NCBI GenBank assembly: GCA_046350905.1
Contig: JAXLZN010000001.1
Location: forward strand, 1,220-65,219
Length of the DNA: 64,000 nucleotides
Direction of reading: 5' to 3'
From: Candidatus Anderseniibacteriota bacterium
GTDB taxonomy: Bacteria > Patescibacteriota > JAUYIX01
The position numbers were made by a program, and so were the translations under genes. The notes beneath the pieces were generated by a model. It was not told the origin of the DNA. It was given only the letters and a program-made list of their open reading frames with translations, and ran no database searches. This document shows positions 32,563 through 58,128 of the stretch, piece by piece. Position 1 is the stretch's first letter; each line of letters begins with the position of its first letter.

Positions 32563-32571
32563 TGCTAGACT
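32563..32571 (+). promoter_or_regulatory. extended -10 TGCTAGACT; predicts a leaderless mRNA
   Basis: TGCTAGACT ends 7 nt before ATG 32579, and there is no SD. Confidence 0.35.
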
Positions 32572-32578
32572 GGGCGGC

Positions 32579-36571: not shown

Positions 36572-37642
36572 TCACCAAAAAGACCAGCGTGTCGGGCTCA
36601 AAGGATCCGTTGACCTCGGCCGCGCTGCGGCACTGACCGCAGCCGTGCCGCCGTACAAAAACCCGTCGTTGATCGGGCCCGGATTGGCTTCTAGGTAGGC
36701 ACGAACGCTGTCCGGCACGCGCGCGTCGAGCAGGAGCAGCGGAGCGTCGTGGGCAGCCGCGTGCGCGCTCCCGGCCAGGGCGTCGGCAAAGGTGCGCCCA
36801 CTCGCAAACGTTACGGTGCAGGGCGTCGCTCCGACCAGTCCGTTGGCGATGGCTACGCTGGTTGCGTAGCGGTCAGCACCCGCCCAGCGTTTGAGGTTGC
36901 CGGTGGGTACAAATCCCGCCAGCTGGCTCGCCACGCGGCTGCTCACCGCTGCGGTACCACCCGCCAGGTTGATGCGCTGCACCGATCGGTGCTGCTCGAG
37001 GTAGGTCTGGGGTGGCGTGGTGAGGGCGGCGTGCTGCACGAGCAGCAGCGGGTAGCGGTCGTGGGCAGCCGGGGCCGAGAGCGCCAGTGCATCAGCAAAC
37101 ACCTCGCCGCTCGCAATGCCGACGGTGGTGGGCTGCCCAAAGCGTGCTGCCACGGCTGCAGCCGTCATGTAGCGATCGTCGCCGCTGAGCCGCACCACGC
37201 TGTACCCATCGCTGCCGACGGTAGCTGCCACCGCCGCGGAGAGCGCCTGCTCACCGCCGAGCAGGTACACCTTTTTGCCGCTCGGCAGCACCCGCTGCAC
37301 CTCGCTGCGCGTCACCGAATTGAGCGAACCCGTCTCGGTCAGCAGCAGCGGTCCCGCGACCAAGCGGCTGAGCGGCCCGCCGACCAGCCCGTCGGCAAAG
37401 CCGTTGCGGCGCGCGATGACCACAGCGCCGGCGCTGCCATCAGCAAACGCAGCCGCACTGATGGCCACCGCGGTAGCCACACGGTCATTGCCGGCGAGCC
37501 GCACGAGCTGCCCCGGGTTGGTCGAGGTACCGGTGCACGCAGCGGATGCGGCCGAGGTTGGCAGTACTGCTGCGCAGACACCGCCGAGCACCGCAACGGC
37601 GAGGGCGCCGTGCAGTACCGAGCTACGTGCTACGCGGACCAC
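36572..37642 (-). CDS. secreted triple CWB2 domain protein (probable N-terminal half of the phosphoesterase)
   Basis: Signal peptide, then AGNDRVATAVAIS..NGFADGLVGGPLSRLVAGPLLLT, SGDDRYMTAAAVA..VFADALALSAPAA..PLLLV and AGADRYATSVAIA..TFADALAGSAHAAAHDAPLLLL. Confidence 0.75.
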   Translation of the reverse strand: MVRVARSSVLHGALAVAVLGGVCAAVLPTSAASAACTGTSTNPGQLVRLAGNDRVATAVAISAAAFADGSAGAVVIARRNGFADGLVGGPLSRLVAGPLLLTETGSLNSVTRSEVQRVLPSGKKVYLLGGEQALSAAVAATVGSDGYSVVRLSGDDRYMTAAAVAARFGQPTTVGIASGEVFADALALSAPAAHDRYPLLLVQHAALTTPPQTYLEQHRSVQRINLAGGTAAVSSRVASQLAGFVPTGNLKRWAGADRYATSVAIANGLVGATPCTVTFASGRTFADALAGSAHAAAHDAPLLLLDARVPDSVRAYLEANPGPINDGFLYGGTAAVSAAARPRSTDPLSPTRWSFW

Positions 37643-39796: not shown

Positions 39797-41106
39797 TCAG
39801 TTTTTCAAGCCCAGGGCGTTGAGCACCTGCAGCAGGCGCACTGGTTCGCTGCGGGGAGTACGGCCGAGGCGGTAGAGCTGCATGAGCCCCAGGTTGGCGA
39901 GCACGAGGAGCGCGCAGAGCACGACGAGCACCCAGCGCTGCCAGCGGCGGCGGGCTGCCACGAGCAGCAGCGCTAGCCCGAGAGCGAGCACGCTGGCCAC
40001 GTCGGTGAACCGCCGCGCTCCAAAGGCGTCGCCGCCCCACCACTCGAGCGCGGCCCCGTTGATGTAGGTCTGGGTGAGGAGGATGGCCAGGGCGTAGAGC
40101 GCGGCGGTCCAGCGCGACTTGGTTGCGCGCGCGGCGGCGACGAGCAACCCGACCAGCGCGATGAGCGCGAGGGGCGTCCAGGTCAGGAGGCCGTGGCGGT
40201 TGGACCCGAGCACCTCAAAAAAGTGCGGGCTGCGCCAGTCCAAAAACCCCGTCCCCTGCGGCACGATCAGCCAGCTGCCGTAGAGCAGCTTCCAGCCGAT
40301 CAGCTGCGGGGCCACCCCGACGAGGGTGCCGAGCGCGACCAGCCCCACGTTGCGCCAGGCCAGGAGCGAACGTTGCTGTACCAGCGCCGCGAGCACGTCG
40401 ATGCCCGGCACGATCAGTCCGACGGCGAGCAGCTGCCAGCGCACGCAGGCGGCGAGGCCCACGATCAGGCCGAGGACGAGCCAGTGCCACCAGTGCTCGC
40501 GGGCAGCTGCGAGCAGCGGGGTTCGCCAGCGCCACCAGAGGTAGAGCAGCAGCGCGACCGCAAAAAAACCCAGGCCGTGCGCCAGGCTCGACTCGATCGC
40601 GAGGTAGTAGACCAGGTTGGTGCCGAGCAGCGTGAGGACACCAGCTCCGGCAGCAACCCAGTCGGCATGAGCTGTGTTGGCGTCGCCACCCTGCTGGACC
40701 GCGGCGGGCGAACCCACGCCGTCGGCCAGCAGCCCGCGGGGACGCGCAGTCGGTCGCGAGGCTAGGAGCAGAAGCAGTTCGGCGTACGAAAAACCGGCGC
40801 CGACGCCGGGCCAGCCCGCGACCCAGTGCACCCAGGCAGCCAGACCGGCGCCCAGAGCAAGGCCGGGCCGACAGAAAATAGGTTCGGCGTCAGACCAGCC
40901 GGCGTCGTGACACCTGAGTCGAGCTGCTGGGCGACGTAGGGGTTGCGCGCGGAAGTGTTCGAGAGCTGGTAGCGAGCCAGGACCTCGGGTTCGCCACTGT
41001 AGCCGAGCTGCTCGTTGAGCCGGGCGACCAGCTCGGTGTGCTCGTGCGAACCCTCGAGCGCGGGGTCGGGTTTGTAAACGACGGGGACACGTTCCAGCAG
41101 CCTCAT
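39797..41106 (-). pseudogene. polytopic membrane protein, GT-C/PMT_2 (ArnT-like) glycosyltransferase candidate, frame break near 40840
   Basis: ORF 40762..41106 (MRLLERVPVVYKPD..NLFSVGPALLWAPVWL) joins ORF 39797..41161 at ..AAWVHWVAGWPG.. Ten or more TM helices follow. The assignment rests on architecture only. Confidence 0.4.
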
Positions 41107-42259: not shown

Positions 42260-42790
42260 CTAGCGCAGAAGCTCGGCCACGAGCCGCCGATCAACGGCTG
42301 TCCCCGGCAAGAGCCGCTGAATCCCCCGCGCGAGGTCCGGAAAGCTACCGGCGCCAATAAAGCGCCCAGCGATGTTGCCAGCCGCATCGATCAAGATGGT
42401 CGTGGGCCAAAAGCGAACCTCAAAGCGGTGGTAGTTCTCGTAGTCGTTGTCGACCGCGACCGGCGGTGATGCGAGTCCGTACCGCTCGAGCTACGTTGGC
42501 AACGTCTGACAAACAGAACTCGGGCGTGTGCACCCCAATGAGCTGAAAGGCTGCGCTTTTGTAGGCGCGCTGGAGCACGGAGGTGCGCTCAGGAGGGACT
42601 GGCTGTGGTGGTCGGCAAAGGACCAGGTTGATGACGCGACCTTGCCCGAGGAGGTCGCCGTCCGATCGTGCGCGTTCGATCCACTCGGAGGCTTCGAGGT
42701 TGGGCGCCCTGACGATGGGATCGTCCTGGCTCGCAGCTCCGGTCGGAGCAGGCTCAGTTGGCTGCGCAAACGTGCTCAAACAGGAAATTA
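42260..42790 (-). pseudogene. thioredoxin-fold redoxin (TlpA/DipZ C-terminal-like) remnant
   Basis: FQLIGVHTPEF..DVANVARAVR, then (shifted near 42470) PVAVDNDYENYHRFEVRFWPTTILIDAAGNIAGRFIGA. The CxxC region is degenerate (LVLCRPPQP). The lipobox-like LISC has no hydrophobic signal upstream. Confidence 0.5.
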
Positions 42791-42942
42791 GGCGACTGCC
42801 ATCCTTTGTATTCCGCGCCTTTGTTTCCTTTTTGACGGACGTTATTCGAACCTTTGCCCCTAGTCTAGCGGATTCGGCGCGCTGGCGCTCATCTAACATC
42901 AGCAGATGATTTGCAGGAGAACAGCCACATAAGTCTGACCAA

Positions 42943-43276
42943 ATGATGGTTTTAGCGGTAATTGGTGTTAGTCTGCTCAGCTTACTGGGCGACTTTGCCT
43001 AATAAGGCCGGGGAAAGTCAGAAATTTATGGATGCCCGCTGGTTCGCAGGTGGAGTTACTTTCTACCTTCTCACTGCAGTGGCGTGGTTTGTGGTCATGA
43101 AGTTCGTAAAGCTGAGCACTATCGGATTAGTGTATTCGACCTCAACTATTCTCTTTCTGACCCTCATCGGCTTCGTTTTCTTCAAAGAACGTCTCAACAC
43201 AGTTGAGGTCATGGGGTTCATTCTCGGCGTAATCGCGATATTTCTCCTAGGCCGTTTTGCGCACGCCTGGCAGTAG
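42943..43276 (+). CDS. SMR/ArnE-like 4-TM small membrane protein (1-nt frame break near 43000)
   Basis: MMVLAVIGVSLLSLLGDFA stops at TAATAA. The next frame continues NKAGESQKF..VKLSTIGLVYSTSTILFLTLIGFVFFKERL..GFILGVIAIFLLG (ORF 42962..43276). Confidence 0.5.
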
Positions 43277-43321
43277 TTACTGATCGCACCCACGTTTGGT
43301 CGACCAATCAGTCTGCCTTTG

Positions 43322-43699
43322 TTAGCTTATTAACTCTATACATTTCGAGACCAATTCTTTCGGCATGTTCTTTGTCTTCTCGAAAAAAGCAATGGCGCCG
43401 AGCTTCCTGGACTCTTCTAACTTGGCCGCTGAAGAAATGTTTGTGAGCATGACTACGGGAATGTCCTTTGTAGATTCATTTTGCTTAAGTTTTTTTAGAA
43501 CTTGTAAGCCGTCCATACCTTCCATCAGAACATCAAGTAAAATCAGGTCGGGATGCCACCTCACCGCACTTGACAGTCCATCCAAGCCGTTAGTTTCAGT
43601 CATTACCTCAAAGCCCTCAAGCTCAAATGGCAGTTTGTACAACAAGGCTTGGTCGTCATCATCTTCAACTAGTAAGATCTTTTTTTCAGTGTTGTTCAT
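43322..43699 (-). CDS. receiver-only response regulator (CheY-like)
   Basis: ILLVEDDDD, phospho-acceptor LILLDVLM, VVMLTN, and a conserved Lys. There is no output domain. Confidence 0.85.
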   Translation of the reverse strand: MNNTEKKILLVEDDDDQALLYKLPFELEGFEVMTETNGLDGLSSAVRWHPDLILLDVLMEGMDGLQVLKKLKQNESTKDIPVVMLTNISSAAKLEESRKLGAIAFFEKTKNMPKELVSKCIELIS

Positions 43700-45249
43700 T
43701 TTCTTTCTGCCTTTGAAAATTCCAACGTAAATGTTGTCCCTTTGTTCTCACCTTCTGATACAAAGCGAATAGAGCCCCCCGGATGCGATTCAATAATTTT
43801 CTTCACTATAAACAGGCCAAGTCCGGAGCCATCTGCGTAAGCCTTAATTGCATTTGATGCGCGTTTGAACTTCTCAAATATTCTTGGCTGTTCAGCAATT
43901 GGAATTCCAATGCCGGTGTCTGAAACTGTCAGTACTGCTTTATCGTTCGTCTCGCGCAGACCTATTCGTACAAACCCCTCATTGGTGTATTTTATTGCGT
44001 TGTCGATGACGTTAGAAATCGCGTGCTCCAGATAATGCGACGAAGCAAGGATGGTAATGGGGGCACCAATATCGATGCCCTGGTATTCCAGTTTTATTTT
44101 CTTTGCTGCAGCCTTCTCTTGTAGATCGTCGCAGATACTTTTTGTTATGGCCCTCAAGTTAATTGGCAGAAGGTCACCTTGAGCCAGTTTGAATGCCACA
44201 ATATCCATTTCTGAAGCTGTAAGGATGTCGTTAACTATGTTGGTCAGTTTTTTCGATTTGTGGAAAAGTCCAGACATCATCATTTTCTTCTTCTCTGCCG
44301 GGATTTTGTCTAAGTCCCCTTCCTCAAGCATTGAGAGCGTACCCGTAATCAACGAAACAGGTGTGCGAAGTTGGTGCGACGCCACGTACAAAAACTCAGA
44401 GCGAGCTTTGATGAGCTCTTCAATTTCTTGACTCTGCGCAATCTCCTTTCTCAGAGCACGAACTATGAAAACAATTAGGAGTGTTATTAGGGCTAAAATA
44501 ACTAGGACCAAAAATCCGATAAACGCGAGAAACGGGTATAGAGTTTGACGCGTAATACTAAAAAAATCGTTTGCTTTTACATCTGTGCCTAGAATTGCAA
44601 CGGTGTTCCCGTTCTCATCTATTATTGGAGCGTATCCAGTCAGAACCGTTCCGTAGTCATCGGTATACAGGTCCTTATTTGTTAGCGGACCGCTGTAAGC
44701 ACTAAACGCCTCTGGAATGTCAGAGGCTTCTGGATAGCCCTGCCCTGGCCACTGAAGTTTATCAGGGCCATCTGGTTCCACCTTGCCGTCGCGATTCACA
44801 TCAACGTATCTGGATGGGTCGTCGCTGGTATTGGCAAACGGGTCAATGGAATCGGCATCCGCCACAAACTCCATTTGAGTTGGGTCGATGCTCGTCTTCC
44901 TAAAGATATACATAAAGACAACGTCTTGGTTGGAATACTTGGCGCGATGCAAGCTATTGACTACCCGTGCCCATTCCGGCTTTTGCCAGTCCTCTTGTAC
45001 GTTAAGCGCGCTCAGGTCTTTCGGATCAATATTTGCTGCTTCGGTAATTGAGATACTGAGCAAGCGCTCTCGAAGGTTATCCTGCAGCAGGACAACGGTT
45101 CGTTGATAAAGGATCCCCGAAGCAAGAATGGCGACAGCAATACTAGTCAGTGCGATAGAGGCACCAATAAATACCAGCTGCCTAGTTTTCCTAGTTTTTA
45201 TTTTTTTGTCCATGTTGCGAGACATCAAGTAAACGATAGACTCTTTCAC
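43696..45249 (-). CDS. sensor histidine kinase with extracytoplasmic Cache-like domain
   Basis: Two TM helices flank a PDC/Cache-like domain (DDYGTVLTGYAPIIDENGNTVAILGTDV). H-box ASHQLRTPV, N-box IDNAIKYT, G1 SDTGIGI, G2 GSGLGL. Confidence 0.85.
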   Translation of the reverse strand: MKESIVYLMSRNMDKKIKTRKTRQLVFIGASIALTSIAVAILASGILYQRTVVLLQDNLRERLLSISITEAANIDPKDLSALNVQEDWQKPEWARVVNSLHRAKYSNQDVVFMYIFRKTSIDPTQMEFVADADSIDPFANTSDDPSRYVDVNRDGKVEPDGPDKLQWPGQGYPEASDIPEAFSAYSGPLTNKDLYTDDYGTVLTGYAPIIDENGNTVAILGTDVKANDFFSITRQTLYPFLAFIGFLVLVILALITLLIVFIVRALRKEIAQSQEIEELIKARSEFLYVASHQLRTPVSLITGTLSMLEEGDLDKIPAEKKKMMMSGLFHKSKKLTNIVNDILTASEMDIVAFKLAQGDLLPINLRAITKSICDDLQEKAAAKKIKLEYQGIDIGAPITILASSHYLEHAISNVIDNAIKYTNEGFVRIGLRETNDKAVLTVSDTGIGIPIAEQPRIFEKFKRASNAIKAYADGSGLGLFIVKKIIESHPGGSIRFVSEGENKGTTFTLEFSKAERK

Positions 45250-47047
45250 CTTCTATATCCATCAGAAATGGTGCGAGTGGAGGTCCTGACTCTCTACCCA
45301 ACAACAACTGATACACATTCTTAAAAAAGCGAGCCTGGCGCGCGCTATTTTGCGTTTTTGTCGCATTTGGCAACTTAGGAATTTGATAAAGCAATGAACG
45401 GAACCGGTCGGCAGATAACGAAGACCTGCGGTGAATCATGTTTCTTAGCAATCTAAGATGCTGAATATCATCAGGCTGCAGTAAGGGAAACAATTCCACA
45501 TTAGGACGATCAAGAACGAAGTAAAGCTTGTTTTTTCTTACCTCGAGATACCTAGCGTTGTCTGTGTTACTAATAGAATGAAGATCGAGATATGCGACGT
45601 CATCAGGGCGTGCAACTTGTGTTCCTATAGATTTCTGTGATCTTATCTTAAGCAATCTTGACACGTCTTTAACTCTGATTTTTCCCGATACCCTCGGCGG
45701 TACCGATCCCTGATGTCTTTTGCGGTGAGCAAGAAATGGTTTCACAATCCATTCGAAGATATCGCGCTGTGGCAATGTGGGCTCCGCTTTTGTTTTCCCG
45801 TTGATGCTGATACTAGAAGCTCCGTAGCCACTACCTCCATAGGGCTTTGTGCCTCGCTCCACACCAGGCGCATGTAAATGCGTATTGTGAAGTAGGGATG
45901 ATCTTGGGTGAAGCACCCGCCCCTTTATTTTTTTTCCAATCATTTTTTGAACGTAGATACTTGTTCCATAGAGTGTTACGTACATGGCATGCTGGGCGTA
46001 TCGGCTATCTTCAAAATAATGATCGAGATCACTATCTCTTCCATACTCTTGAACAAAAACAATCGGTGCAAAAATTTCATTGTAATTGCCCCCCTTGAGT
46101 AGGGGTTTGCAGACAATCGTCGGTTCGACAACGGCATCACTTGCCCTGATTATTCCTGGCGTAGACAGGTCAAGCCATTTTCGATTCTCTACCAGAAAAT
46201 TCTGAATCCTAACGAGATCTTTTGGATCGCCAATGGGGCCGACTCTGCTTTGCTTAGAGGAGTAACTGCCGACATCGAGGCTTGCAACATGGCTCCGAAG
46301 GATGGACAAGAATTTTCTCATGACGCTTTTGTGAACGAGGATTGCATTTGGCGCGGCACAATCTTGCCCTTGATTGTAGAACTGCAATGTGACGACCGCC
46401 TCAACAGCCTTGAGAAGGTCAGCATCTCGCGCTACAACCAGGGGATTATGACCAGCTCCGTTTGCGATGAAAAGTGTATGCTTATCAAATACTGCTCTTA
46501 GCTGGTCAGCATGAGTGGGTGTGCCTGTGAAAATCACTACGTCCGTTACGGGGCTTTTTTCGTCTGTTTGGGAGTTGATCAGAAGCGCTGATCTTTCCTC
46601 GAGAAACTCAACTCTGGAGGACTTAGAGACGATTACGTTTGGAAAAAATTTAGGTACGTCAAGGAGAGCAAGCATGTCATCAAAGAAATGTCTCATGGTA
46701 TGAGGTATACGAAAATACACCTTACTCGCCATCAGAGAAGGCACGAGCACAAAACAAGTTAGTGCATACAAGGGTTGGTTTCTGGGAAGGAACGAGGCGA
46801 TAGTTCCAACCCTTAACTGAAAGAAGTTTCCGTTCTCCTTTAGGTTTCTCAACAGATCGAGAGTCCGAGCCGTTTCATCCTTGATCACCTCGTAACTTTC
46901 GTAACTAGACAGAATTGGAGCTAATTTGCCAAAACGAGACTCGATGATGTCGGCAAAGGATCGTGCAAGTCGTTCAATCGCTGCGAAGTCAAGCGGGGTA
47001 TATGGAACAGGGTTCTTTTTCACAATTATCTTTTTTGTCTTCTTCAT
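45191..47047 (-). CDS. atypical aldehyde-dehydrogenase-superfamily protein fused to a ~170-aa C-terminal extension
   Basis: The ALDH Cys motif FYNQGQDCAAPNAILV and NEIFAPIVFV are present. The ELGG general-base motif is replaced by IANGAGHNP. The C-terminal tail contains FFKNVYQLLLGRESGPPLAPFL. Confidence 0.7.
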   Translation of the reverse strand: MKKTKKIIVKKNPVPYTPLDFAAIERLARSFADIIESRFGKLAPILSSYESYEVIKDETARTLDLLRNLKENGNFFQLRVGTIASFLPRNQPLYALTCFVLVPSLMASKVYFRIPHTMRHFFDDMLALLDVPKFFPNVIVSKSSRVEFLEERSALLINSQTDEKSPVTDVVIFTGTPTHADQLRAVFDKHTLFIANGAGHNPLVVARDADLLKAVEAVVTLQFYNQGQDCAAPNAILVHKSVMRKFLSILRSHVASLDVGSYSSKQSRVGPIGDPKDLVRIQNFLVENRKWLDLSTPGIIRASDAVVEPTIVCKPLLKGGNYNEIFAPIVFVQEYGRDSDLDHYFEDSRYAQHAMYVTLYGTSIYVQKMIGKKIKGRVLHPRSSLLHNTHLHAPGVERGTKPYGGSGYGASSISINGKTKAEPTLPQRDIFEWIVKPFLAHRKRHQGSVPPRVSGKIRVKDVSRLLKIRSQKSIGTQVARPDDVAYLDLHSISNTDNARYLEVRKNKLYFVLDRPNVELFPLLQPDDIQHLRLLRNMIHRRSSLSADRFRSLLYQIPKLPNATKTQNSARQARFFKNVYQLLLGRESGPPLAPFLMDIEGERVYRLLDVSQHGQKNKN

Positions 47048-47385
47048 TTACGTATTTGCATGAAAACAATACCTGCAAGAGCCAAACCCATGCCAAAAAG
47101 TTGGTACATGGAAAAGTTGCCCCATTCATGAAAGAAAAAAAGGCCAACCAGGATAGTGGTTGATGTTAGTAGAACGTCGACGGTAGCTGAGGCTGCGGAC
47201 AACCCCAATTTCTCAGCAACTAAGCCGAAAGAAATAAACACCAGGGGGGAAACGACTACGATGACAAGAAGCCAAGGGGAAACAAACTTGTTTACTTTGC
47301 TGGCCCAAACGGCACTTACTGAATTCGCGATCAGCGCCGTAAGAACGGCTACCGCAATGTAGAACAAGGTAGGTAAGCGGGGCAC
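47044..47385 (-). CDS. SMR/DMT-like 4-TM small membrane protein
   Basis: 113 aa with four hydrophobic helices. ATGA overlaps the ALDH-like gene start. No EmrE-type TM1 Glu. Confidence 0.5.
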   Translation of the reverse strand: MPRLPTLFYIAVAVLTALIANSVSAVWASKVNKFVSPWLLVIVVVSPLVFISFGLVAEKLGLSAASATVDVLLTSTTILVGLFFFHEWGNFSMYQLFGMGLALAGIVFMQIRK

Positions 47386-47391
47386 GAAGCT

Positions 47392-47400
47392 ACTGTATCA
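47392..47400 (-). promoter_or_regulatory. extended -10 TGATACAGT; predicts a leaderless operon transcript
   Basis: The minus strand TGATACAGT ends 6 nt before GTG 47385. Confidence 0.3.
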
Positions 47401-47552
47401 CGACGTTTGATCGCTTTAGTTGCCCTTGGGAAAGTTACTTCCTTGCTCTTTCGCTTTGGACTGCTGTAATAAGTGTTGCTCGAATAGGACCTCGATGGCG
47501 AGGTACTTGCGCCACATTTTCTTAAGGTTTAGGGTTGTAGACTTTAAGCGAT

Positions 47553-48365
47553 GTGAATACCTTGATCCCAGTTGGCGTAGAAACCCCAGGGCAGGCTGCT
47601 GCTGGGGTCGTCCTTTGCTTTGCCTTTCTTCTTGTCGGGGCCTGGCTCTTGGTGCGAAACAGGAAGGCTCCTCGCTATCCCCTAGTAGCTGCAGCCCTAC
47701 TTTGTCTTTCGGTTTCCTTCTGGGTGGCCTCTTCGGTTGCAGCGGGCAGACTCGAGGCACCATTTCAACTCTACGTATCCCTCCTCTTGTCGTACATTTT
47801 GGTCTATCCCGCCCTAATGTCTTTTTTGTGGTTTTGCGAACGTTTTCCGTCATCGCCCTCTGGTAGGGACAGTATTTCTAGTACATTGGCCACTACGGCG
47901 ACTGTCGTTGCGGTAGTGGGCTCCGCCCTCGTCTTGCTACCAGCTACGTCTCCAGACAGGTTTGACGTGACAAGACAGATGGTCTTTACAGTCGGAGCTG
48001 GATACACGTACTGGTTACAGATCATTCTGACGAGCATTGTTTTTGTGAGCGGGGTGCTTATTTGCATACGCAAAATGCAAGCCGTGCGTCCGCACGATAG
48101 AGCTGCTTTACGCACTATACTGATCGGAATCAGTTCAAGTTTTTTCCTTGGAGCTATTTTTTCAATCCTCGCGAACCTCAACCCGCAAGTTTCTGCATTC
48201 AGCAGCGTAGAAACTCCCTCAATTCTTTTCTTGTCAGCGCTGGTGTACGCGCTCGTGCACCACGGGATTGCGGGACAGTCGCGTTCTATTTCAACCCGAG
48301 TCGTTGTTGTTTCTGTAGTGGTGTTAGTCGCAACATCGATCATTTTGCTGACGGTACAGGTATGA
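47553..48365 (+). CDS. stand-alone multi-TM sensor-like membrane protein
   Basis: About 8 TM helices. IRKMQAVRPHDRAALRTILIGISSSF parallels LGKMRHGNPNDRRAVVLIVTSFAAV in the N-terminal domain of the next kinase. Confidence 0.5.
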   Translation: MNTLIPVGVETPGQAAAGVVLCFAFLLVGAWLLVRNRKAPRYPLVAAALLCLSVSFWVASSVAAGRLEAPFQLYVSLLLSYILVYPALMSFLWFCERFPSSPSGRDSISSTLATTATVVAVVGSALVLLPATSPDRFDVTRQMVFTVGAGYTYWLQIILTSIVFVSGVLICIRKMQAVRPHDRAALRTILIGISSSFFLGAIFSILANLNPQVSAFSSVETPSILFLSALVYALVHHGIAGQSRSISTRVVVVSVVVLVATSIILLTVQV

Positions 48366-48378
48366 ACTCGAGCGCCCA

Positions 48379-50409
48379 ATGGTAGCGGTTTTATCAACCA
48401 TTACGCCGCTGCAGGCATTGCTTTCCACGCTGGTGGCAGTTGGTTGCGCAGTAATCGGTTTTTCACTGCTACGTACCAAGCGCGCAACCCTGTACCCGGT
48501 TCGGGCTGCAGCATCGGTGAGCTTTGGTCTCGCCGTCTGGATATTACTCAACGTGTTAGATGACACCTCAACGTCTGTACCCGTTTACTACCACCTTTCA
48601 CAGACAATTTACGCCTACTCCGGGTTTATCCTGCTCAACTTTCTGTACCTTGCACTCCGATTTCCGCCGCTGACACGTCGACCTGCACGGCTCGCAATAC
48701 TTACAGGTGGATTCTTACTGACGTGTGCGGTAGCCGTACTGGTTTTTCACCCCGCTGGTCTGGTTGTCCGCTTCAGCGACGCAATCGGCGACATTGTAAT
48801 CCAGGACCGACTACCCTATTTCTGGATCGTGCTCGGCATTTTCTGCTCGCTGCTGGCGACCTCATGTGCGGTGCTGTTGGGGAAAATGCGACACGGCAAC
48901 CCTAACGATCGACGTGCCGTAGTGCTGATTGTGACAAGTTTTGCAGCTGTTGCACTCACAACGATGGCGATGGTTACGGTCGATGCACTCAACAACGGAC
49001 AGCCCTACCTGCTGCCGTACGCCTACTACGGAATGGGTTTGTTTGTTGCCGCAATGGGGTACGCAATCACAAAGTACGGAGCTCTAGCATCATCCCTGAA
49101 TATTCAGCGGCGTGTGGTTAGCGCCATGGTTTTGGCTTTTTTTGTCGCCCTGATCGGTGTGTTAGCGCCCAGCCTCAGACGAATTGACATTTCCGTGCTC
49201 GTGCTAGCCTGGGTAAGTGTCACACTCGCCGTTGTCGCCTTCTTTATCATTGAGCAGACGCGCTCGTACCCGGACTTACACGCGGCAACAGATGGTCCAC
49301 TCCGGCCAAGCGCGGAGTTTTCCGCGTGGATCGCTAAGCGCCTGGGCTTGACTCGGGCGCACTGGAAACCCGGTACCGACATACGGGGTACGGCAGCACC
49401 AGCCGGCAGCTGGAACAACGCGGACGTATCCAGCACCCTCCGCAAACGAGTCGGCGGCACCCGTTTTGACGAGGCTGGGCCGGAGCGAACCGCCGGGCGG
49501 ATCGCCACATCACGAGGCACGCTCGTGGTCGGACGCAAGCGCTACAACATTGCCCTATCGGAAGAGGAAGTTCGCTCATTGCTCAACTGGGCGAGCCTGC
49601 ACGCAGCAGCACTTGAGTTGCGGGCCCTGCGCGATAAACGGAGCAACCACCTATCCGAAATAACTGCGCTAGCAGATGCGCGCTCAAGAGAGCTTGAACG
49701 AGCAAATCGCAAGCTCTACGAAAAACTGCGCAAGCGCTCAAAGTTTTTTAAGTCCGTTGCTGCTGAGCTTCGTACCCCGCTCACTGTGGTTGTCACGAGC
49801 ATCGATAGCGGCGCGGTCAATGTACCGCAAGAGCAGGCTTCCGCTATCCTTGACGCAGCGCGCAAGCTCAAGACCTTAACCCAAGAGTTCACCCAGGGAA
49901 CTGGCGCTGCTGCTGAGCAGGTTGCTGCAGGCGTGACCTCTCTTGCGGATGTGTGCGAAAACATGGAACGGCAGTACCTAGCCTGGGCCTCCTCAAAACA
50001 GATCGAGCTGCATACCTCGGTCACTCCGCTCGGCGCAAAAACGTCTATTTCACGCATACATATTGAACGTGCGCTCGATAACCTGGTCAGCAACGCACTC
50101 AAGTACAGTCCTGCGGGTACACATGTCTGGATCAATGCAGGTGCGTTGGATGGCAGCGTTCAGCTCGCAGTCGAAGATGAAGGTCCGGGTATCAAGCAAG
50201 AGGATCGTGAGCTGATCTTTGAACCGTTCTTCCGTACGCGTGAGGCTGGAGCAGTGGCCGGCACGGGACTCGGTCTTGCCGCCGTTAAGCACGTTGCGGA
50301 AGCTCACGGAGGTGACGTACGGGTCGAACCGCGAGTGCCGCGAGGTTCGCGATTTGTAGTCACGCTACGAGAGCCTGCACTGGTAGTTAGCAACCACTAT
50401 GCAGCGTGA
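48379..50409 (+). CDS. membrane histidine-kinase-like protein lacking the H-box histidine
   Basis: About 8 TM helices. The DHp H-box reads FFKSVAAELRTPLT (Ala codon 49762-49764 where His is expected). N (DNLVSNALKYS), G1 (EDEGPGI), F (FEPFF) and G2 (GTGLGL) boxes are intact. Confidence 0.8.
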   Translation: MVAVLSTITPLQALLSTLVAVGCAVIGFSLLRTKRATLYPVRAAASVSFGLAVWILLNVLDDTSTSVPVYYHLSQTIYAYSGFILLNFLYLALRFPPLTRRPARLAILTGGFLLTCAVAVLVFHPAGLVVRFSDAIGDIVIQDRLPYFWIVLGIFCSLLATSCAVLLGKMRHGNPNDRRAVVLIVTSFAAVALTTMAMVTVDALNNGQPYLLPYAYYGMGLFVAAMGYAITKYGALASSLNIQRRVVSAMVLAFFVALIGVLAPSLRRIDISVLVLAWVSVTLAVVAFFIIEQTRSYPDLHAATDGPLRPSAEFSAWIAKRLGLTRAHWKPGTDIRGTAAPAGSWNNADVSSTLRKRVGGTRFDEAGPERTAGRIATSRGTLVVGRKRYNIALSEEEVRSLLNWASLHAAALELRALRDKRSNHLSEITALADARSRELERANRKLYEKLRKRSKFFKSVAAELRTPLTVVVTSIDSGAVNVPQEQASAILDAARKLKTLTQEFTQGTGAAAEQVAAGVTSLADVCENMERQYLAWASSKQIELHTSVTPLGAKTSISRIHIERALDNLVSNALKYSPAGTHVWINAGALDGSVQLAVEDEGPGIKQEDRELIFEPFFRTREAGAVAGTGLGLAAVKHVAEAHGGDVRVEPRVPRGSRFVVTLREPALVVSNHYAA

Positions 50410-51772
50410 TGCCTTTGTCGGGTCTACCAGGAACGTAGCAGCTGGTGTGGCCGCTGCTCTGCTGCTCTTTGCCATCGGCATTGGGGCTTTTCAGCTGGCG
50501 GCGGTATTGCGACCGGTACCTACCGTGCTGCTCCTGACGCAAGCCGGGATTGTCGGACTGCTAGCATGGGGTGCTTCATTGGTTGTGCCGCGGGCACGAC
50601 AGATCGCCACGCGGTACCTCTTTCCCGGTTCGTACAATTACGAAGAGCGCGTGCGTCAGTTGGCATTGCGCGCCTCGTACGACGTTTCGCTGTGGGACGC
50701 GAACGTACTACTTAAACAGCTCGGCAACTTGGTTGGAGCACACGTTGCCCTCGTGGATCGAGAGGGTGACGCTGCTCTGATCGTCGAGCTGCCGGCGCGT
50801 ACCATGCATCAGTTTCTGCTCTTTGGGGAAAAAGAAAATGGCGACCCCTGGACCTCACACGATCGACAGCTACTCGAGTGGTTTGCACGTTGCGTTGCCG
50901 TCTCGCTCAGCCTGGCTCGTGAACGCCAGCTCGAGGTGCGACGACTACGTCAGACCGAGGAGCAGCTCACGCGCATGACCAAAGAGGCAACAGAGCTGCG
51001 ATCACAACTCGAGACCCGTGACCATGAACACACAGCTCGCCTCGATGAGCTTGCCCACGACCTAAAGAACCCGATCGTGCATATCGCCAACGCGCTGGAG
51101 CTATCTGGCCTAGAGGACCCAAGTGTGAGCGCAGAATCCTCGTTTCGTAAGGTTCGAGCAGAGGTTGATTGGATGATCAAGTTTGTCGACCACATGCTCG
51201 AACTTGCTCGGGCCGAAGCCGGACGAACCACGCTGCAAAAACAACTGGTATACCTAGACGAGGTGGTCGATGACGCGATCGAGGCCCTTGCGGAGTTTGC
51301 GTCTCGACAGGACCGGCGTGTGGAGCGCCAGTCCAGCGGTCAACTAGTGGATGTTGCGACCATGGCAGACGACGGACTAGTTTACAAGCTGTTTGAACTC
51401 CTTATCAGCCGCGCAATTCGCCTCTCGCCCACAACGGTGCAGTGCCGTATTTCTACCTCACTAGATGGAAAACTGGCCTACGTGGACATTCTTGTTGATC
51501 GCGTACCCGAGCTGGCCGGGATTGAGCCACACGAGCTACTCGGTCGCCTGAGCCGACAATGGATGCACCGCGATGATCGTCAGTTTGGGATTACTGGCCT
51601 AGAACTGTCGATTGCACAGTGGATCATGCAGGCACACAACGGATCACTCACGGTGGCAGAGTCAGATGAGCAGAGAACTGTTATCCGAACAGCATTCCCA
51701 CTCTCGGCAAGTTTTCAACAGGATGATGCTAAGAAAATTTCCGGACAGTCTGTTGCACCTGTCCTCAACTAA
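50399..51772 (+). CDS. histidine kinase with intact H-box but degenerate ATP-binding domain
   Basis: H-box LDELAHDLKNPI is present. The N-box reads ELLISRAIRLS (Asn replaced by Arg). G1 reads VDRVPELAG (no DxGxG). G2-like GITGLEL. It overlaps the upstream gene by 11 nt. Confidence 0.75.
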   Translation: MQRDAFVGSTRNVAAGVAAALLLFAIGIGAFQLAAVLRPVPTVLLLTQAGIVGLLAWGASLVVPRARQIATRYLFPGSYNYEERVRQLALRASYDVSLWDANVLLKQLGNLVGAHVALVDREGDAALIVELPARTMHQFLLFGEKENGDPWTSHDRQLLEWFARCVAVSLSLARERQLEVRRLRQTEEQLTRMTKEATELRSQLETRDHEHTARLDELAHDLKNPIVHIANALELSGLEDPSVSAESSFRKVRAEVDWMIKFVDHMLELARAEAGRTTLQKQLVYLDEVVDDAIEALAEFASRQDRRVERQSSGQLVDVATMADDGLVYKLFELLISRAIRLSPTTVQCRISTSLDGKLAYVDILVDRVPELAGIEPHELLGRLSRQWMHRDDRQFGITGLELSIAQWIMQAHNGSLTVAESDEQRTVIRTAFPLSASFQQDDAKKISGQSVAPVLN

Positions 51773-51783
51773 CACCCGCTGAC

Positions 51784-52611
51784 ATGTGGCGCACTATCCA
51801 AGGAACCTTCAAAAAAAGCCGCGTTGCGCAATTGACGCTCATACTGTTTGTGGCATTGACGCTGTGGTGGATCACGATTTTTATGCGTGGTGTCCGAGAC
51901 GTATTTGAGAGTAACTTATTTTCAGCCATCTACTTTGTCATTGCTCTCATCGGAGGGCTTGCCGGAATTGGCGCAGCGAGACGTTGGGATGGCCGTTCAA
52001 GTGTGCTCGGGCGTGCTGTCTTTGCGCTAGCTGCTGGCATGCTAGCGCAAGTATTTGGCCAGCTTTCGTACGCCGTGGGCATCAACGTCTACCACTTTAC
52101 AATCCCGTACCCCTCCGTCGGGGATATTGGCTACTTCGGCAGCGTTTTCTTCTACATCTACGGTGTTGTCTTACTTGCACGAGCAACTGGAATTCGATTT
52201 TCGCTCAAAAAATACAGAGGGCAGCTGCAGGTAATACTGATTCCAGCTCTACTGTTGACCCTCTCGTATATAGTCTTCTTGAGAGGCTACGTGTTCGATT
52301 GGTCGCATCCACTGCGTATTTTGCTCGACTTTGGATATCCCCTTGGCGAAGCCACGTACGTCTCCATTGCACTACTTGCACTCCTGCTTTCAAGAAACAT
52401 TTTGGGGGGAACGCTGCGGTCACCGCTCGTACTGCTACTGGTGGCACTCATTGCGCAGTACCTCTCTGATTACGTGTTTCTCTACCAGGCCTACCACGGG
52501 ACGTGGCTCAGTGGGGGCATTAACGACTACATGTACCTCATCTCGTACTTTCTGATGACAATCGGGTTAATTCAGATTGGGGTCACCGCTCGTCGTCTTA
52601 CCCAAAACTAG
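51784..52611 (+). CDS. stand-alone 7-8 TM membrane protein
   Basis: 275 aa and hydrophobic throughout. It starts 12 nt after the kinase stop. No soluble domain. Confidence 0.55.
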   Translation: MWRTIQGTFKKSRVAQLTLILFVALTLWWITIFMRGVRDVFESNLFSAIYFVIALIGGLAGIGAARRWDGRSSVLGRAVFALAAGMLAQVFGQLSYAVGINVYHFTIPYPSVGDIGYFGSVFFYIYGVVLLARATGIRFSLKKYRGQLQVILIPALLLTLSYIVFLRGYVFDWSHPLRILLDFGYPLGEATYVSIALLALLLSRNILGGTLRSPLVLLLVALIAQYLSDYVFLYQAYHGTWLSGGINDYMYLISYFLMTIGLIQIGVTARRLTQN

Positions 52612-52619
52612 CAGCGGCC

Positions 52620-52898
52620 ATGACTCCCGCCGATACCGTTGCCACCGCAATCATCCGAGCTCAGGCAGCGATCATCGGCTCAATCGCGTGGAGACAAGCC
52701 GCCAAAGTTGCGGGCGTCTCGATCAACCAGGAGTTTCAAATTGCTCATGTTAGCAGTGATACAAAAACCGTCCTAACAAACTTGATCAATAGGTACGAAC
52801 ATTTGTTTGGTCACGCCGCAACGAGTGTAAGCCGCGAGGGCGCCGGGCCTCACGTAGCCAGTCTCTTGGAGGAAGAGATCCCTAGCGGACTAAAATGA
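52620..52898 (+). CDS. hypothetical protein (92 aa)
   Basis: The ORF starts 9 nt after the previous stop. No motif recognised. Confidence 0.4.
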   Translation: MTPADTVATAIIRAQAAIIGSIAWRQAAKVAGVSINQEFQIAHVSSDTKTVLTNLINRYEHLFGHAATSVSREGAGPHVASLLEEEIPSGLK

Positions 52899-52911
52899 AT
52901 AACACAGCAAC

Positions 52912-53940
52912 TTACTTTGGGTACTTGGTGTACCCAGTACTGACAACAAGGATTTTAGCGTCTTCGGTAACTTTTTTCTTACCGAGCTGCAACAATAGTG
53001 CCAAACCAGCCAGGCCAGAAGGCTCGGCCCGTACATTGTTCCGCTCTGCGACCTGCATAGCCTGCTCAAGGTAGCGTTCCTGAATTGCATGCACGCCAGA
53101 CTGTGCGCCACAGAAACCAGAGTACTGATAGAGCTTGATCGACTGTTCGTTAAAGTGCACAAAGGGAAGGTGCGGCGAGTAGAGTTTGGTCGCGGACGAA
53201 CTCGGATCATTGGTTGTTGCCCCGAGAAAATGACAGCGACGGAGGATGGCATTGCGACCCTTGTACCGTGGGTCGTGGAGAGACGTGCTTACTTCACGTT
53301 TATTGATCCCAAGAATATTTTCGTAGAGAGTGCCTGTGCCAAAAGGAATAAAGCAGTACTCGGGCGACTGGTTGATCACCTCGTAGCTCAACCAATCATA
53401 AAAGCGAGTCGCGGGGTCGAGTGCTTCAGATGACGTGATGTCGAACCCGTCTGGGTTGTGGGTCAGTGCGAGGATATCGCTCCAGGAAAGCGGGGCGCGC
53501 GACAGATCAGTTTGAAAAATCTCGCAACCGAGTTTTTCTAATACGTTTACAATATTGGCGTCCAATTCTGTGTCGACAAGCACTTTGAGATTCGGCAGAC
53601 CGTATTTGTTGAGCTGCGTTTGGATGGCAACTGCTGCCGAACCAGACGAAATGATAGACATCTGTGGAAGCGTCGCCGAAGAAAGATTGTTTTTCTTTGC
53701 GAGCAGAAAGTGACGGTACGTGACCACAATCTCCCAGGCCATTCTGTCCTTATGCGTGCCTGTAGGGTTGTAGCTTTCATCTTTCAACCACACGTTGGTA
53801 AAGCCATGCACCTTGATCTTGTACGTAGGTGTCGCAGGAAACTTAGGATCGTCAGCGGGGAACTCCGGCCGCCGTGGATCATTTTCTGATCGCACGTGAA
53901 TTCGGCTCAGAATCTTTTTCTCAGCCGAGGAAAGAGACAT
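52912..53940 (-). CDS. PLP-dependent enzyme, tryptophan-synthase-beta fold (PALP family)
   Basis: WLKDESYNPTGTHKDRMAWE contains the PLP-lysine motif (NPTG[ST]xKDR). Start reset to MSLSSAEKK (ATG 53940). The upstream 130 codons of the ORF track overlap the M20 gene. Confidence 0.75.
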   Translation of the reverse strand: MSLSSAEKKILSRIHVRSENDPRRPEFPADDPKFPATPTYKIKVHGFTNVWLKDESYNPTGTHKDRMAWEIVVTYRHFLLAKKNNLSSATLPQMSIISSGSAAVAIQTQLNKYGLPNLKVLVDTELDANIVNVLEKLGCEIFQTDLSRAPLSWSDILALTHNPDGFDITSSEALDPATRFYDWLSYEVINQSPEYCFIPFGTGTLYENILGINKREVSTSLHDPRYKGRNAILRRCHFLGATTNDPSSSATKLYSPHLPFVHFNEQSIKLYQYSGFCGAQSGVHAIQERYLEQAMQVAERNNVRAEPSGLAGLALLLQLGKKKVTEDAKILVVSTGYTKYPK

Positions 53941-53953
53941 GCTACGCCGGAGG

Positions 53954-55096
53954 CTAGAGGCGGGCGGTGGCGTTGTCAACAACCTCACACAGAATCGCAG
54001 AGAGATCCGCAATGCTTTGCAGGGTGACGAACTCGTCGAGCCCGTGCATCCCTGCTCCGGTGGGTCCAAGCAAGACCGCTGGCACACGCCAACGCTCGGC
54101 CAGCAGCTGGATGTCGGAGTAACCACCCTTGCCTGCAGGCGCGTATGAAACGCGGCCGAGGACGCTGCGCTGCGCCTGCTCGACCAAGCGCAGCTTGCTG
54201 CGAGGCGTTGTGAACGACCCGAGGCTATTCTTAGTCGTTGTAGCGGGGTTCGCGCCGTACGCACGTACCGCGCGCTCAAACGTGCGAATGATCCGCTGAG
54301 GTGTAAGCCCCGTGACCGTCCTGACTTCAATGGTCGCGCTACAAGTATCGGGAATCACGTTGGCCGGCGCGGTACTTCCATCGCCGATCCCGCAGCGAAC
54401 ACCAGTCACGTTGAGGGTTGGTTTACCAAGCACGCGATCGTTTGTCATCCGAACAAGTCGCTTGAGCGCATCAACGCCCGCGAGCAGGCCCTCAAATGCA
54501 CTGACGCCAGACCATGGACGCGCAGCGTGACCAGACTTGCCACGCACTGCTACGTCGAGCTCAAGTACACCCCGACAGCCTGCCCGCAGCGCTAGGTTAG
54601 TCGGTTCAGGGCAGATGACGAGCCGTGGTCGTGGAAGCCCTGCTGTCCTTACAAACTGCTTCATGCCGACAAAGTCGTACTCTTCGTCGGCGTAGAAGAG
54701 CGCCGCAACGTTACTGCAACCGTGGACCGCGGCATGTTCGAGCACTACGAGGATGGCCACGAGACCGGCTTTCATGTCGGCTGATCCACGCCCGTACAGA
54801 CGACTACCTACGCGCTGACCAAGCGAACGGTAACGCCAACCAGTGCCGAGCGGCACGGTATCCATGTGGCCGATCAACAGCACGCCAGCTTGTACTCGTT
54901 TCCGTGGAGTAACCACAAGGTTAACGCGACCCGGCGTGACGACTTGCCGCCGCACGCGGTAGGTCGGTAGATGGCGCTCAATGTACGTCTCGAGGTAGTC
55001 AGCAACACCTCGCTCGACAGAGCCGCGACGTGGCTGTGCCTCGCGGTCGCTCCTGATTGCGATGAGCCGCTTGAGCAACTCCAGGTCAACGTTCAT
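53954..55096 (-). CDS. M20 family metallopeptidase (ArgE/DapE-like deacylase)
   Basis: LLIGHMDTVP, GRGSADMKAG, ADEEYDF and the dimerisation-domain layout. It lies 13 nt upstream of the PLP enzyme gene. Confidence 0.8.
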   Translation of the reverse strand: MNVDLELLKRLIAIRSDREAQPRRGSVERGVADYLETYIERHLPTYRVRRQVVTPGRVNLVVTPRKRVQAGVLLIGHMDTVPLGTGWRYRSLGQRVGSRLYGRGSADMKAGLVAILVVLEHAAVHGCSNVAALFYADEEYDFVGMKQFVRTAGLPRPRLVICPEPTNLALRAGCRGVLELDVAVRGKSGHAARPWSGVSAFEGLLAGVDALKRLVRMTNDRVLGKPTLNVTGVRCGIGDGSTAPANVIPDTCSATIEVRTVTGLTPQRIIRTFERAVRAYGANPATTTKNSLGSFTTPRSKLRLVEQAQRSVLGRVSYAPAGKGGYSDIQLLAERWRVPAVLLGPTGAGMHGLDEFVTLQSIADLSAILCEVVDNATARL

Positions 55097-55154
55097 GGTA
55101 GTCGCCAGCCTACCACCATAAAGCCAGAGGTGGCGCGTTTAGGCAGCAACTTTC

Positions 55155-58128
<2,974 letters not shown>

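Follow-up and report, generated by a model that had tools for sequence, protein, structure and literature searches.

A mosaic redoxin-to-uvrA locus in a high-GC Andersenbacteria genome: a probably imported cassette beside a resident pair of complementary kinase genes

Flexible genomic islands, of the replacement or additive type, have been described in streamlined aquatic prokaryotes (Lopez-Perez et al. 2014, PMC4033161), and hundreds of islands have been predicted in 125 genomes of groundwater Patescibacteria, where most individual transfers reportedly took place between Patescibacteria (mSystems 2025, PMC12455944). Here we analyze a 64,000-nucleotide stretch of DNA (the window; contig JAXLZN010000001.1 of assembly GCA_046350905.1) from a Candidatus Andersenbacteria metagenome-assembled genome (MAG) of 65% GC, and in particular a deviant region of 12.3 kb (about 42,832-55,155) that begins at a decayed redoxin gene and ends at uvrA. 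Outside this region, the window carries ordinary chromosomal genes, including bipA, dnaG, rpoD, groEL and uvrA. The region is probably a flexible genomic island of a known kind, situated at a presumed recombination hot spot and attributable to ordinary gene exchange among these bacteria. Like the islands of PMC4033161, it occupies a fixed position between conserved flanks, differs in gene content among related genomes and has a GC below that of the backbone, and it lacks an integrase, a tRNA and repeats; exchange is presumed to proceed by recombination. Those islands, however, were defined on strains of one species, whereas the genomes compared here are related at genus or family level, their flank proteins ranging in identity from about 50% (orf492) to 95% (GroEL), and the cargo here consists of signalling and membrane genes rather than cell-surface glycosylation genes.

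Within the region, we distinguish segment A (42.9-47.4 kb) from segments B to D, which follow it towards uvrA. Segment A fits the pattern of transfer between Patescibacteria reported in PMC12455944. The islands of that study were predicted by composition tools on MAGs, whereas here the empty-site state and a resident core were recognized by synteny, and a text search of the study brought up no two-component or histidine-kinase cargo. The region also resembles integrase-type genomic and pathogenicity islands and integrative conjugative elements in its deviant composition, its accessory cargo and its absence from close relatives, but it differs from them in having no integrase or recombinase, adjacent tRNA or tmRNA, direct repeats, or conjugation or phage genes, and in that resident genes lie inside it. 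Degenerate or 'split' histidine kinases, such as kinase-like proteins that lack the phosphate-accepting His or are deficient in ATP binding, work with a partner. Two overlapping genes of the region, HK676 and HK457, are reminiscent of this arrangement: HK676 has no His but retains the N, G1, F and G2 boxes, while HK457 has the H-box but not the N and F boxes. In contrast to the split kinases, there is no cognate receiver beside the two genes, the trans-phosphorylation is putative, and the HK457 family is small and uncharacterized. Taken as a whole, the region is probably a flexible locus of high-GC Andersenbacteria with mosaic content, in which segment A was imported, the kinase pair is resident and accessory genes lie around it. 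Its more unusual items are the complementary kinase pair and an operon that encodes an aldehyde dehydrogenase (ALDH) fused to a C-terminal domain related to lysyl-tRNA synthetase (LysRS-C).

Composition, borders and synteny of the region

The composition shift is real, and the region departs from the host chromosome in GC, in GC at third codon positions (GC3), in tetranucleotide signature and in relative synonymous codon usage (RSCU). In 1-kb windows, the backbone has a GC of 0.653 +/- 0.026 with a minimum of 0.589, whereas the mean for 42.9-53 kb is 0.505 (range 0.427-0.589); the GC of the deviant region overall is 0.44-0.61. GC3 is 0.44-0.60 in the island genes and 0.646 in the M20 gene at their right end, compared with 0.71-0.89 in backbone genes of at least 250 aa. 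Tetranucleotide z-score profiles were correlated with the whole backbone, with size-matched backbone chunks as the control. The correlation r was 0.22 for 42.9-47.4 kb, 0.33 for 47.4-51.8 kb, and 0.29 for both 51.8-53.95 kb and the M20 gene, and every one of these values lies below the minimum of the size-matched chunks (0.64-0.80 for twenty chunks of 4.4 kb; minimum 0.46 at 2.2 kb and 0.32 at 1.15 kb). An earlier reading of the letters alone (the sequence-only reading) had described an abrupt switch in base composition and codon third positions, and these computations confirm the shift; they likewise agree with its description of the island as an internal mosaic, with GC changing by segment from left to right through 0.45, 0.55, 0.51 and 0.61. 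The NCBI-named Andersenbacteria genomes bear the digits 45-54 in their names (taxonomy records), which we take, by a naming convention, to be their GC percentage; if so, this MAG and its closest relatives L085 and L086, at 65% GC, would represent a high-GC sub-lineage of the class.

The sequence-only reading had placed the island at 42,790-53,950. The left edge is at about 42,832, and the right border lies at about 55,100-55,155, because the M20 gene is absent from L085 and L086 and is promoter-proximal in a two-gene operon with the PALP gene. The suggestion that the M20 gene might belong to the island was thus well founded, and its tetranucleotide correlation and GC3 point in the same direction. 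The gene inventory (two SMR/EamA-like proteins, an ALDH fusion, three histidine-kinase-type proteins, one receiver, a HisKA_7TM-like protein, a 275-aa membrane protein, a 92-aa open reading frame (ORF), a PALP enzyme and an M20 enzyme) agrees with the Pfam and NCBIfam results, with both of the proteins described as SMR/ArnE-like matching only below threshold. All of the island proteins are singletons when about 15 billion proteins are clustered at 90% identity.

Relatives with the locus were found through the contigs of the few homologues of orf362, a left-flank gene, and four of these (L085, L086, L088 and L089) were informative. The nearest genomes found have about 73-95% protein identity to the window. 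A scan of a genome collection with the C-terminal part of UvrA gave best matches of about 72% identity from unrelated phyla and without synteny, UvrA being too conserved, and a metagenome scan with an orf362 alignment yielded nothing beyond a duplicate of L089 and some contigs that were short or distant. The most informative relative, L085, is a 520-kb JGI contig with a GC of 0.656, and its proteins are 95% (GroEL), 88-91% (UvrA) and 73% (orf362) identical to those of the window, with similar values for L086. By blastn, DNA homology to L085 ends on the left at 42,832 and restarts on the right at 55,261, within uvrA, and inside the region the only leftover DNA similarity is at the two kinase cores. 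The left flank is a TlpA/AhpC-type redoxin gene (42,263-42,899, minus strand) with at least three frame breaks, as seen when its three-frame translation was aligned with the redoxins of the four relatives. The N-terminal part of this gene has a GC3 of 0.63 and is more diverged than the C-terminal part, with a GC3 of 0.76; the N-termini of the relatives are also less conserved. The right flank is uvrA (55,155-58,128, minus strand), identified by Pfam, translations, tblastn and blastn and split by frame breaks near 56,195-56,218.

Both L085 and L086 have the order uvrA, a kinase-core gene of 276 or 269 aa, a second kinase-core gene of 241 or 244 aa, redoxin and orf362, continuing to GroES/GroEL. 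Their gap between uvrA and the redoxin gene is 1.6 kb and contains the two short kinase genes only, with a host-like GC3 of 0.79-0.81, and tblastn detected no island gene in these two relatives besides the homologues of the kinase pair, M20 and PALP included. A single acquired island of 11 kb, as proposed from the sequence alone, is not supported by this arrangement, since the kinase pair is resident in L085 and L086 in the same order and orientation and with host-like GC3, while the extra DNA of the window lies on both sides of it. Nor is there a single origin, for the leftmost 4.5 kb differs from the rest in codon usage and in source.

The redoxin/orf362 flank is kept in all four relatives and uvrA is the other flank in L085, but the content past the redoxin gene differs among the relatives. 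L088 has unrelated genes beyond it. L089, which is more distant (88% identity for GroEL and 44% for orf362; backbone GC3 of 0.60-0.71), has another AT-richer patch just past the redoxin gene, with GC3 of 0.34-0.55. This patch contains a homologue of the 275-aa membrane protein TM275, followed directly by a homologue of the 92-aa protein orf92, together with a kinase, a PALP enzyme and an EamA protein. Since L088 and L089 hold different genes there, the redoxin-adjacent site is variable across the clade. The gene order at 1,500-8,600 of L089 is TrmB, PALP, LPG-synthase-C, TM275 homologue, orf92 homologue, kinase, AdoMet decarboxylase and EamA, and the kinase gene at the far end of the patch carries an in-frame stop. 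That kinase fragment was considered as an orthologue of HK676 and rejected, as it retains the His.

Frame breaks were also considered as markers of the island borders, and this idea was rejected because they occur in many backbone genes. Frame changes relative to the L085 orthologues were seen at 36,575-36,582, 40,810-40,831, 42,263-42,899, 56,195-56,218, 58,719-59,797 and 60,560-62,337; the broken backbone genes are a CWB2/metallophosphatase gene, orf454, the redoxin gene, uvrA, a gene of 415 aa and uvrC, while 11 of the 12 island genes remain intact. This means either that the assembly is prone to indels in GC-rich DNA or that the genome contains many pseudogenes, uvrA and uvrC among them. 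A further, shallower GC dip (0.56-0.59) was observed at 16.5-20.4 kb, lying partly in an ORF of 1,455 aa (14,752-19,119, minus strand) with Thr/Ser/Gly-rich repeats (…TFTHNSGTVTF…SDCSFPLGS…), which probably encodes a giant surface protein. As the GC3 of this ORF is 0.62-0.85, the dip within it is explained by amino-acid repeats rather than by foreign origin.

The operon of segment A

The core of segment A is a cassette of four minus-strand genes that overlap or abut one another. These are, in the direction of transcription, SMR113 (47,044-47,385), encoding a protein of 113 aa with four transmembrane (TM) segments and a weak NCBIfam EbrB match; ALDH618 (45,191-47,047), with an ALDH fold and a C-terminal LysRS-related domain (Pfam Aldedh, AlphaFold2, Foldseek and profile search); HK517 (43,696-45,249), a membrane sensor histidine kinase with the H, N, G1, F and G2 boxes (Pfam HisKA and HATPase_c, motif alignment); and RR125 (43,322-43,699), a stand-alone receiver (Pfam Response_reg, E 2.7e-19). 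We found all four genes in the same order in the relative L081 (NCBI GCA_030698975.1), the ALDH and kinase genes being separated there by a methyltransferase gene, with identities to the window of 65% (SMR113), 61% (ALDH618), 65% (HK517) and 75% (RR125). In a second relative, L083 (JGI), the 113-aa, ALDH and kinase genes stand in the same order, and the 113-aa protein and the kinase are 53% and 50% identical. In both relatives the 113-aa gene is the immediate upstream neighbour of the ALDH gene. L081 and L083 are genomes of 35-41% GC and belong to two other Patescibacteria lineages. Among the more than 470 homologues of ALDH618, those with a taxon name come nearly all from Patescibacteria groups; besides the query there was no Andersenbacteria member among them, and none exceeded 61% identity.

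The codon usage of segment A is unlike that of its host: its RSCU correlates at -0.17 with that of the host backbone, compared with +0.50 for L081 and +0.54 for L083. Its proteins are of the low-GC type in amino acids as well, with GARP/FYMINK ratios of 0.49-0.92 against 1.3-4.4 for backbone proteins. Because this codon usage matches that of genomes of 35-41% GC, segment A is clearly best read as a horizontal acquisition from the pool of low-GC (Paceibacteria-type) Patescibacteria. GC at the first, second and third codon positions is 0.52/0.36/0.46 in segment A, 0.46/0.32/0.30 in L081 and 0.67/0.43/0.88 in the host, and GC3 in the cassette relatives is 0.28-0.30. Since the shift is greatest at third positions, the pattern would fit partial amelioration, but the same figures would result from a donor with a GC of about 45%. 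On these grounds an old acquisition of segment A, as envisaged in the sequence-only reading, is plausible.

That reading had drawn its age and domestication argument from the promoter, and this part does not stand. The operon starting at 47,385 does share the TGnTAnnnT pattern with backbone genes: an extended -10-like element, TGATACAGT (47,392-47,400, minus strand), lies 6 nt before the GTG of SMR113 in a leaderless arrangement, and a second, TGGTAGGCT (55,107-55,115, minus strand), lies 10 nt before the ATG of the M20 gene. In our motif scan, SMR113, M20 and several backbone genes were each preceded by TGnTAnnnT, with 6-12 nt between the element and the start codon. The cassette operon of L081, however, carries TGCTAGGAT 9 nt before its ATG, and a comparable extended -10 element precedes the operon of L083. 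A promoter that is already present in the donor-type operon says nothing about domestication, and the leaderless arrangement is instead a shared habit of Patescibacteria. In the window, such sites are found at 32,563-32,579, 39,024-39,039, 23,158-23,177, 47,385-47,400 and 55,096-55,115, which suggests that leaderless transcripts may be common in this genome and that the true start of orf492 would be the ATG at 39,024, next to the element at 39,039. Generic scans for sigma-70 promoters and terminators gave nothing above shuffled expectation.

HK517 and RR125 have the features of a two-component system, namely a complete set of kinase boxes and an adjacent receiver with an acidic pocket and acceptor Asp. 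In HK517, a canonical sensor kinase, two TM segments enclose an extracytoplasmic domain of some 190 aa, while RR125, whose gene overlaps that of HK517 by 4 nt, has no output domain, and its EDDDD, LLDVLM, T and K motifs are readable. Residues 1-440 of ALDH618 form a complete ALDH fold (AlphaFold2 mean confidence, pLDDT, of 85.5; Foldseek E of about 1e-19 over about 450 columns), and the catalytic Cys is retained in a YNQGQDC motif that is invariant in 32 homologues. The general-base Glu of hydrolytic ALDHs (ELGG) is missing, and an Asn of the invariant NGAGHNP motif is aligned there. Because Asn replaces the general base, the sequence suggests non-hydrolytic chemistry and a thioester-forming enzyme, which may be of the reductase or the acyl-transfer type. 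For the C-terminal domain, a profile search matched a single solved protein, class I LysRS, at its C-terminus (PDB 1irx, residues 448-517, E 7e-9). The Rossmann-fold catalytic domain of the synthetase is absent from ALDH618, in that only the last ~70 residues match and there is no Pfam tRNA-synt_1f match. The JGI label 'lysyl-tRNA synthetase class 1' on ALDH618 homologues is explained by this C-terminal resemblance, and we reject it as an over-annotation since the synthetase catalytic domain is absent.

SMR113 and a second small protein, EamA104, fall short of the thresholds for the small multidrug resistance (SMR) family, with scores of 26.7 against 160 for EbrB and 19.3 against 23.7 for Multi_Drug_Res. 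Moreover, TM1 of SMR113 contains no Glu or Asp, unlike that of true SMR pumps. EamA104 is a 4-TM protein of EamA/SMR-like type on the plus strand (42,944-43,276; listed ORF 42,962-43,276), lies outside the conserved cassette and has a probable frameshift near 42,995; it was recognized from a Pfam EamA score of 28 bits, just below the cut-off, weak NCBIfam EbrA/ArnF matches and sequence reading. Both proteins are thus SMR-like in form, with fitting size and hydrophobicity, but are not demonstrable members of the family. Our best guess for the cassette is a sensor-controlled unit for the modification and export of a small molecule, and a putative tRNA-linked substrate is conceivable.

The kinase pair and the accessory genes of segments B to D

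The two kinase genes of the pair lie on the plus strand. HK676 (48,379-50,409; Pfam, tblastn and motif alignment) encodes a 7TM sensor followed by a kinase core, and HK457 (50,399-51,772; tblastn, alignments and family census) encodes a 2-TM N-domain followed by a kinase core. By tblastn, residues 434-665 of HK676 match the 241/244-aa genes of L085 and L086 with 46% identity, and residues 199-438 of HK457 match the 276/269-aa genes with 54% identity, in the order and orientation of the window. HK676 and its homologues in these two genomes have (S/A)AELRTPL in place of SHELRTPL but retain intact N, G1, F and G2 boxes; in HK676 itself the motif is AAELRTPL, with the acceptor His changed to Ala and the ATP-binding domain intact. 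Conversely, HK457 and its homologues keep the H-box (AHDLKNP) but have lost the N-box Asn and the F-box segment, and the Pfam HATPase_c score of HK457 is 25.5 bits against a cut-off of 26.4. Neither protein qualifies as a canonical autophosphorylating kinase, as the His and a complete ATP-binding domain never occur in one protein. The genes overlap by 11 nt in the window and by 4 nt in L085. This complementary degeneration is common to three genomes (48,379-51,772 in the window, 7,804-9,356 in L085 and 199-1,739 in L086), and the His-to-Ala change and the degenerate catalytic and ATP-binding (CA) domain are shared derived states of the three. Because it is conserved in all three, we infer that HK676 and HK457 act as one unit, in which HK676 would phosphorylate HK457 in trans. 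The shared degeneration also makes this part of the region homologous to the locus of the relatives, which excludes a chimeric origin there.

A search of 1.84 billion representative proteins with HMMER retrieved only 11 proteins of the HK457 type at E <= 1e-30, the nearest relative of HK457 being the L086-type core at 54% identity. Six of the 11 are full length and share the 2-TM/FPGSYxYE/NGDPW N-domain, so full length is the norm of the family and the L085 and L086 copies are seemingly truncated. For HK676, a protein homologue search gave a best match of 33% identity at 39% coverage, so that besides the genes of L085 and L086 no close homologue was found; this search missed the 46%-identical core of L085. 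The two cores have diverged differently. The HK457 core is 69.5% identical between L085 and L086 and 54% between the window and L085, as vertical descent predicts from flanking genes such as orf492 (69% and 50%, respectively). The HK676 core is 88.5% identical between L085 and L086, which is close to the 88% of orf362, but only 46% between the window and L085, where orf362 has 73%, and is therefore far more diverged than expected. Synteny and shared degeneration indicate that the pair is resident at the locus and would be the lineage's own, although its GC3 is not that of the host.

Upstream of the pair lies 7TM270 (47,553-48,365, plus strand), a stand-alone HisKA_7TM-like membrane module (27.8 bits in Pfam, just below the cut-off) and a distant paralogue of the HK676 N-terminus, with 24% identity by blastp. 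Downstream are TM275 (51,784-52,611, plus strand), a multi-pass membrane protein, and orf92 (52,620-52,898, plus strand), both recognized by their L089 homologues. TM275 had no Pfam or NCBIfam match; it is 54% identical over its full length to the gene at the equivalent locus of L089, and orf92 is 35% identical to the 90-aa gene (E 9e-15) that directly follows it there, as in the window. The 275-aa and 92-aa proteins are thus not the orphans for which they had been taken, and to judge from this shared adjacency they form a conserved two-gene module that would travel with kinases. The last two genes, M20 (53,954-55,096, minus strand; Pfam and NCBIfam), encoding an M20/ArgE/DapE-family hydrolase, and PALP342 (52,912-53,940, minus strand; Pfam PALP, E 2.8e-16), encoding a pyridoxal-phosphate-dependent (PLP-dependent) enzyme with a Trp-synthase beta-like fold, form a two-gene operon in which PALP342 follows 13 nt after M20; both are deviant in tetranucleotide signature. 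The start of PALP342 agrees with NCBI protein MFO0702308.1, and its PLP-lysine motif TGTHKDR is kept, with no close solved relative.

The composition of segments B to D differs from that of segment A. Their RSCU correlates at 0.62-0.72 with that of the host and equally well, at 0.60-0.75, with L088 and L089, which are mid-GC relatives, whereas the correlation with L081 and L083 is about zero; their codon preferences run in the host direction but more weakly, and HK676, HK457 and M20 have host-like amino-acid composition. Because the orthologues in L085 and L086 have host-like GC3, long-term residence alone does not explain a GC3 of 0.58 here, which leaves two options: an allele swap from a lower-GC relative, or local escape from a GC drive.

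Origin and meaning of the locus

Searches for mobility functions agree with the sequence-only reading, which had seen no integrase, transposase, tRNA or flanking direct repeats. Pfam and NCBIfam recognized no recombinase or transposase domain in the 12 island proteins, and the intergenic space leaves no room for a gene of this kind. The sole tRNA found is at 32,391-32,480, there is no Rfam match in 41-57 kb, and the repeat search for flanking direct repeats found only short, imperfect ones at chance level. No plasmid or phage similarity was detected by blastn, a scan of viral contigs with the ALDH profile was also empty, and PADLOC reported a generic HATPase match only and no defence system.

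In the reading that we regard as probable, segment A would have been gained horizontally, as a conserved leaderless operon, from low-GC (Paceibacteria-type) Patescibacteria, and HK676 and HK457 would be the lineage's kinase pair, native to the locus and presumably forming a single trans-phosphorylating unit. 7TM270, TM275-orf92 and M20-PALP would be accessory genes of Andersenbacteria type, with codon usage nearer that of mid-GC relatives than of the host; they may have come by recombination from a lower-GC relative, probably together with the present kinase alleles, or be older residents since deleted in the closest relatives. With no mobility encoded by the element, integration would consist of the recombination of taken-up DNA at a hot spot beside the redoxin gene, and the role of the locus would be accessory membrane sensing and small-molecule handling. 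Several points weigh against this reading. The full-length form of HK457 is common and the short genes of L085 and L086 look truncated, so the difference may be partly due to deletion in the relatives. The divergence of HK457 (54%) fits vertical descent at rates like those of orf492, although its GC3 of 0.58 does not, and no donor has been identified for segments B to D. Furthermore, the context of cassette A comes from only two distinct relatives and that of the locus from only four, the left junction (about 42.83 kb) and the junction between A and B (47.4-48.4 kb) are without independent assembly support, and the recombination mechanism, like every functional statement made here, is deduced from sequence.

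Much of the same evidence bears on whether the region arose in one event, either as a single island or, in a softer form, through allelic replacement of the whole redoxin-to-uvrA interval from a lower-GC relative with a mosaic locus. All genes from 42.9 to 55.1 kb have non-host GC3, even the resident-type kinase pair, the divergence of the HK676 core from L085 goes far beyond what the flanking genes predict, and the left border falls in a decayed redoxin gene, in which GC3 is lower in the N-terminal than in the C-terminal part. We nevertheless find this unlikely, since the genes fall into two distinct codon-usage classes (A versus B to D) with stepwise GC and no integrase, tRNA or repeats, and the positional conservation of the kinase pair in the relatives excludes simple insertion of an 11-kb foreign block. 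Equally doubtful is a wholly native, vertical origin of the region, or at least of 47.5-55.1 kb, with low GC produced by a local regime such as exemption from recombination-linked GC enrichment. The resident pair, the vertical-like divergence of HK457, the host-like amino-acid composition of HK676, HK457 and M20 and the host-directed codon preferences of segments B to D are all in its favor, and the equivalent locus of L089 is likewise AT-richer than its own backbone; if the digits 45-54 in Andersenbacteria names are GC percentages, by the convention mentioned above, the 65% backbone would even be the derived state. Yet the orthologous kinase genes of L085 and L086 are fully host-like in GC3, so the locus is not shielded from GC enrichment; segment A has proteins and codons of the low-GC type, is absent from the nearest relatives and has its closest homologues in genomes of 35-41% GC; and the tetranucleotide signature is deviant too.

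The sequence-only reading had thought contamination or a chimeric assembly improbable, and our data lead to the same view, leaving very little likelihood for an artefact in which a piece of a lower-GC Patescibacteria genome was joined in. The sequence is a MAG with a sharp composition step at 42.8 kb, the many frame breaks of the backbone mean that sequence quality is perhaps imperfect, and the left junction has no independent support, which exact-protein look-ups with ALDH618, orf362, the redoxin ORF and M20 did not supply, as they returned no independent contigs. However, the same backbone resumes on the other side, and inside the region lies the lineage-specific complementary kinase pair in the place, order and orientation of the relatives. 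In addition, two contigs that Logan assembled independently from run SRR26348421 match 48,307-50,571 and 50,606-54,826 of the window at 100% identity, the second crossing the PALP|M20 composition step at 53,950. An artefact confined to segment A would need two false joins, and the GC3 of this segment, at 0.46, is well above that of its relatives. A more far-reaching interpretation, which we consider improbable, makes the redoxin-to-uvrA locus a lineage-wide site of 'sensor swapping', with a fixed kinase-pair core, in which His-less HK676 would trans-phosphorylate HK457, and with membrane inputs and cassettes exchanged by recombination from lower-GC Patescibacteria. The exchanged inputs may be the 7TM domain, the 2-TM N-domain, 7TM270 and TM275-orf92, and the obligatorily paired HK676/HK457 core may be the common signalling output; the SMR-like/ALDH-LysRS-C/HK/RR operon, in this view Patescibacteria-wide, would be an example of a cassette, and its enzyme may use a tRNA-linked or some other activated acyl group as substrate.

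The probable reading of the region as a mosaic flexible locus has consequences for how such islands are recognized and studied. The empty-site state rests here on synteny and not on composition alone, and the locus calls for caution with composition-based island calls, as the kinase pair within the deviant stretch is resident and the true right border lies 1.2 kb past the visible GC step. It also offers two uncharacterized but conserved units for experiments, the Glu-less ALDH/LysRS-C operon, which is found in two other Patescibacteria lineages, and the degenerate kinase pair. For the biology of the group, the locus would serve as a worked example of how streamlined, ultra-small Patescibacteria may gain sensing genes at a hot spot, without an integrase, from relatives of very different composition.

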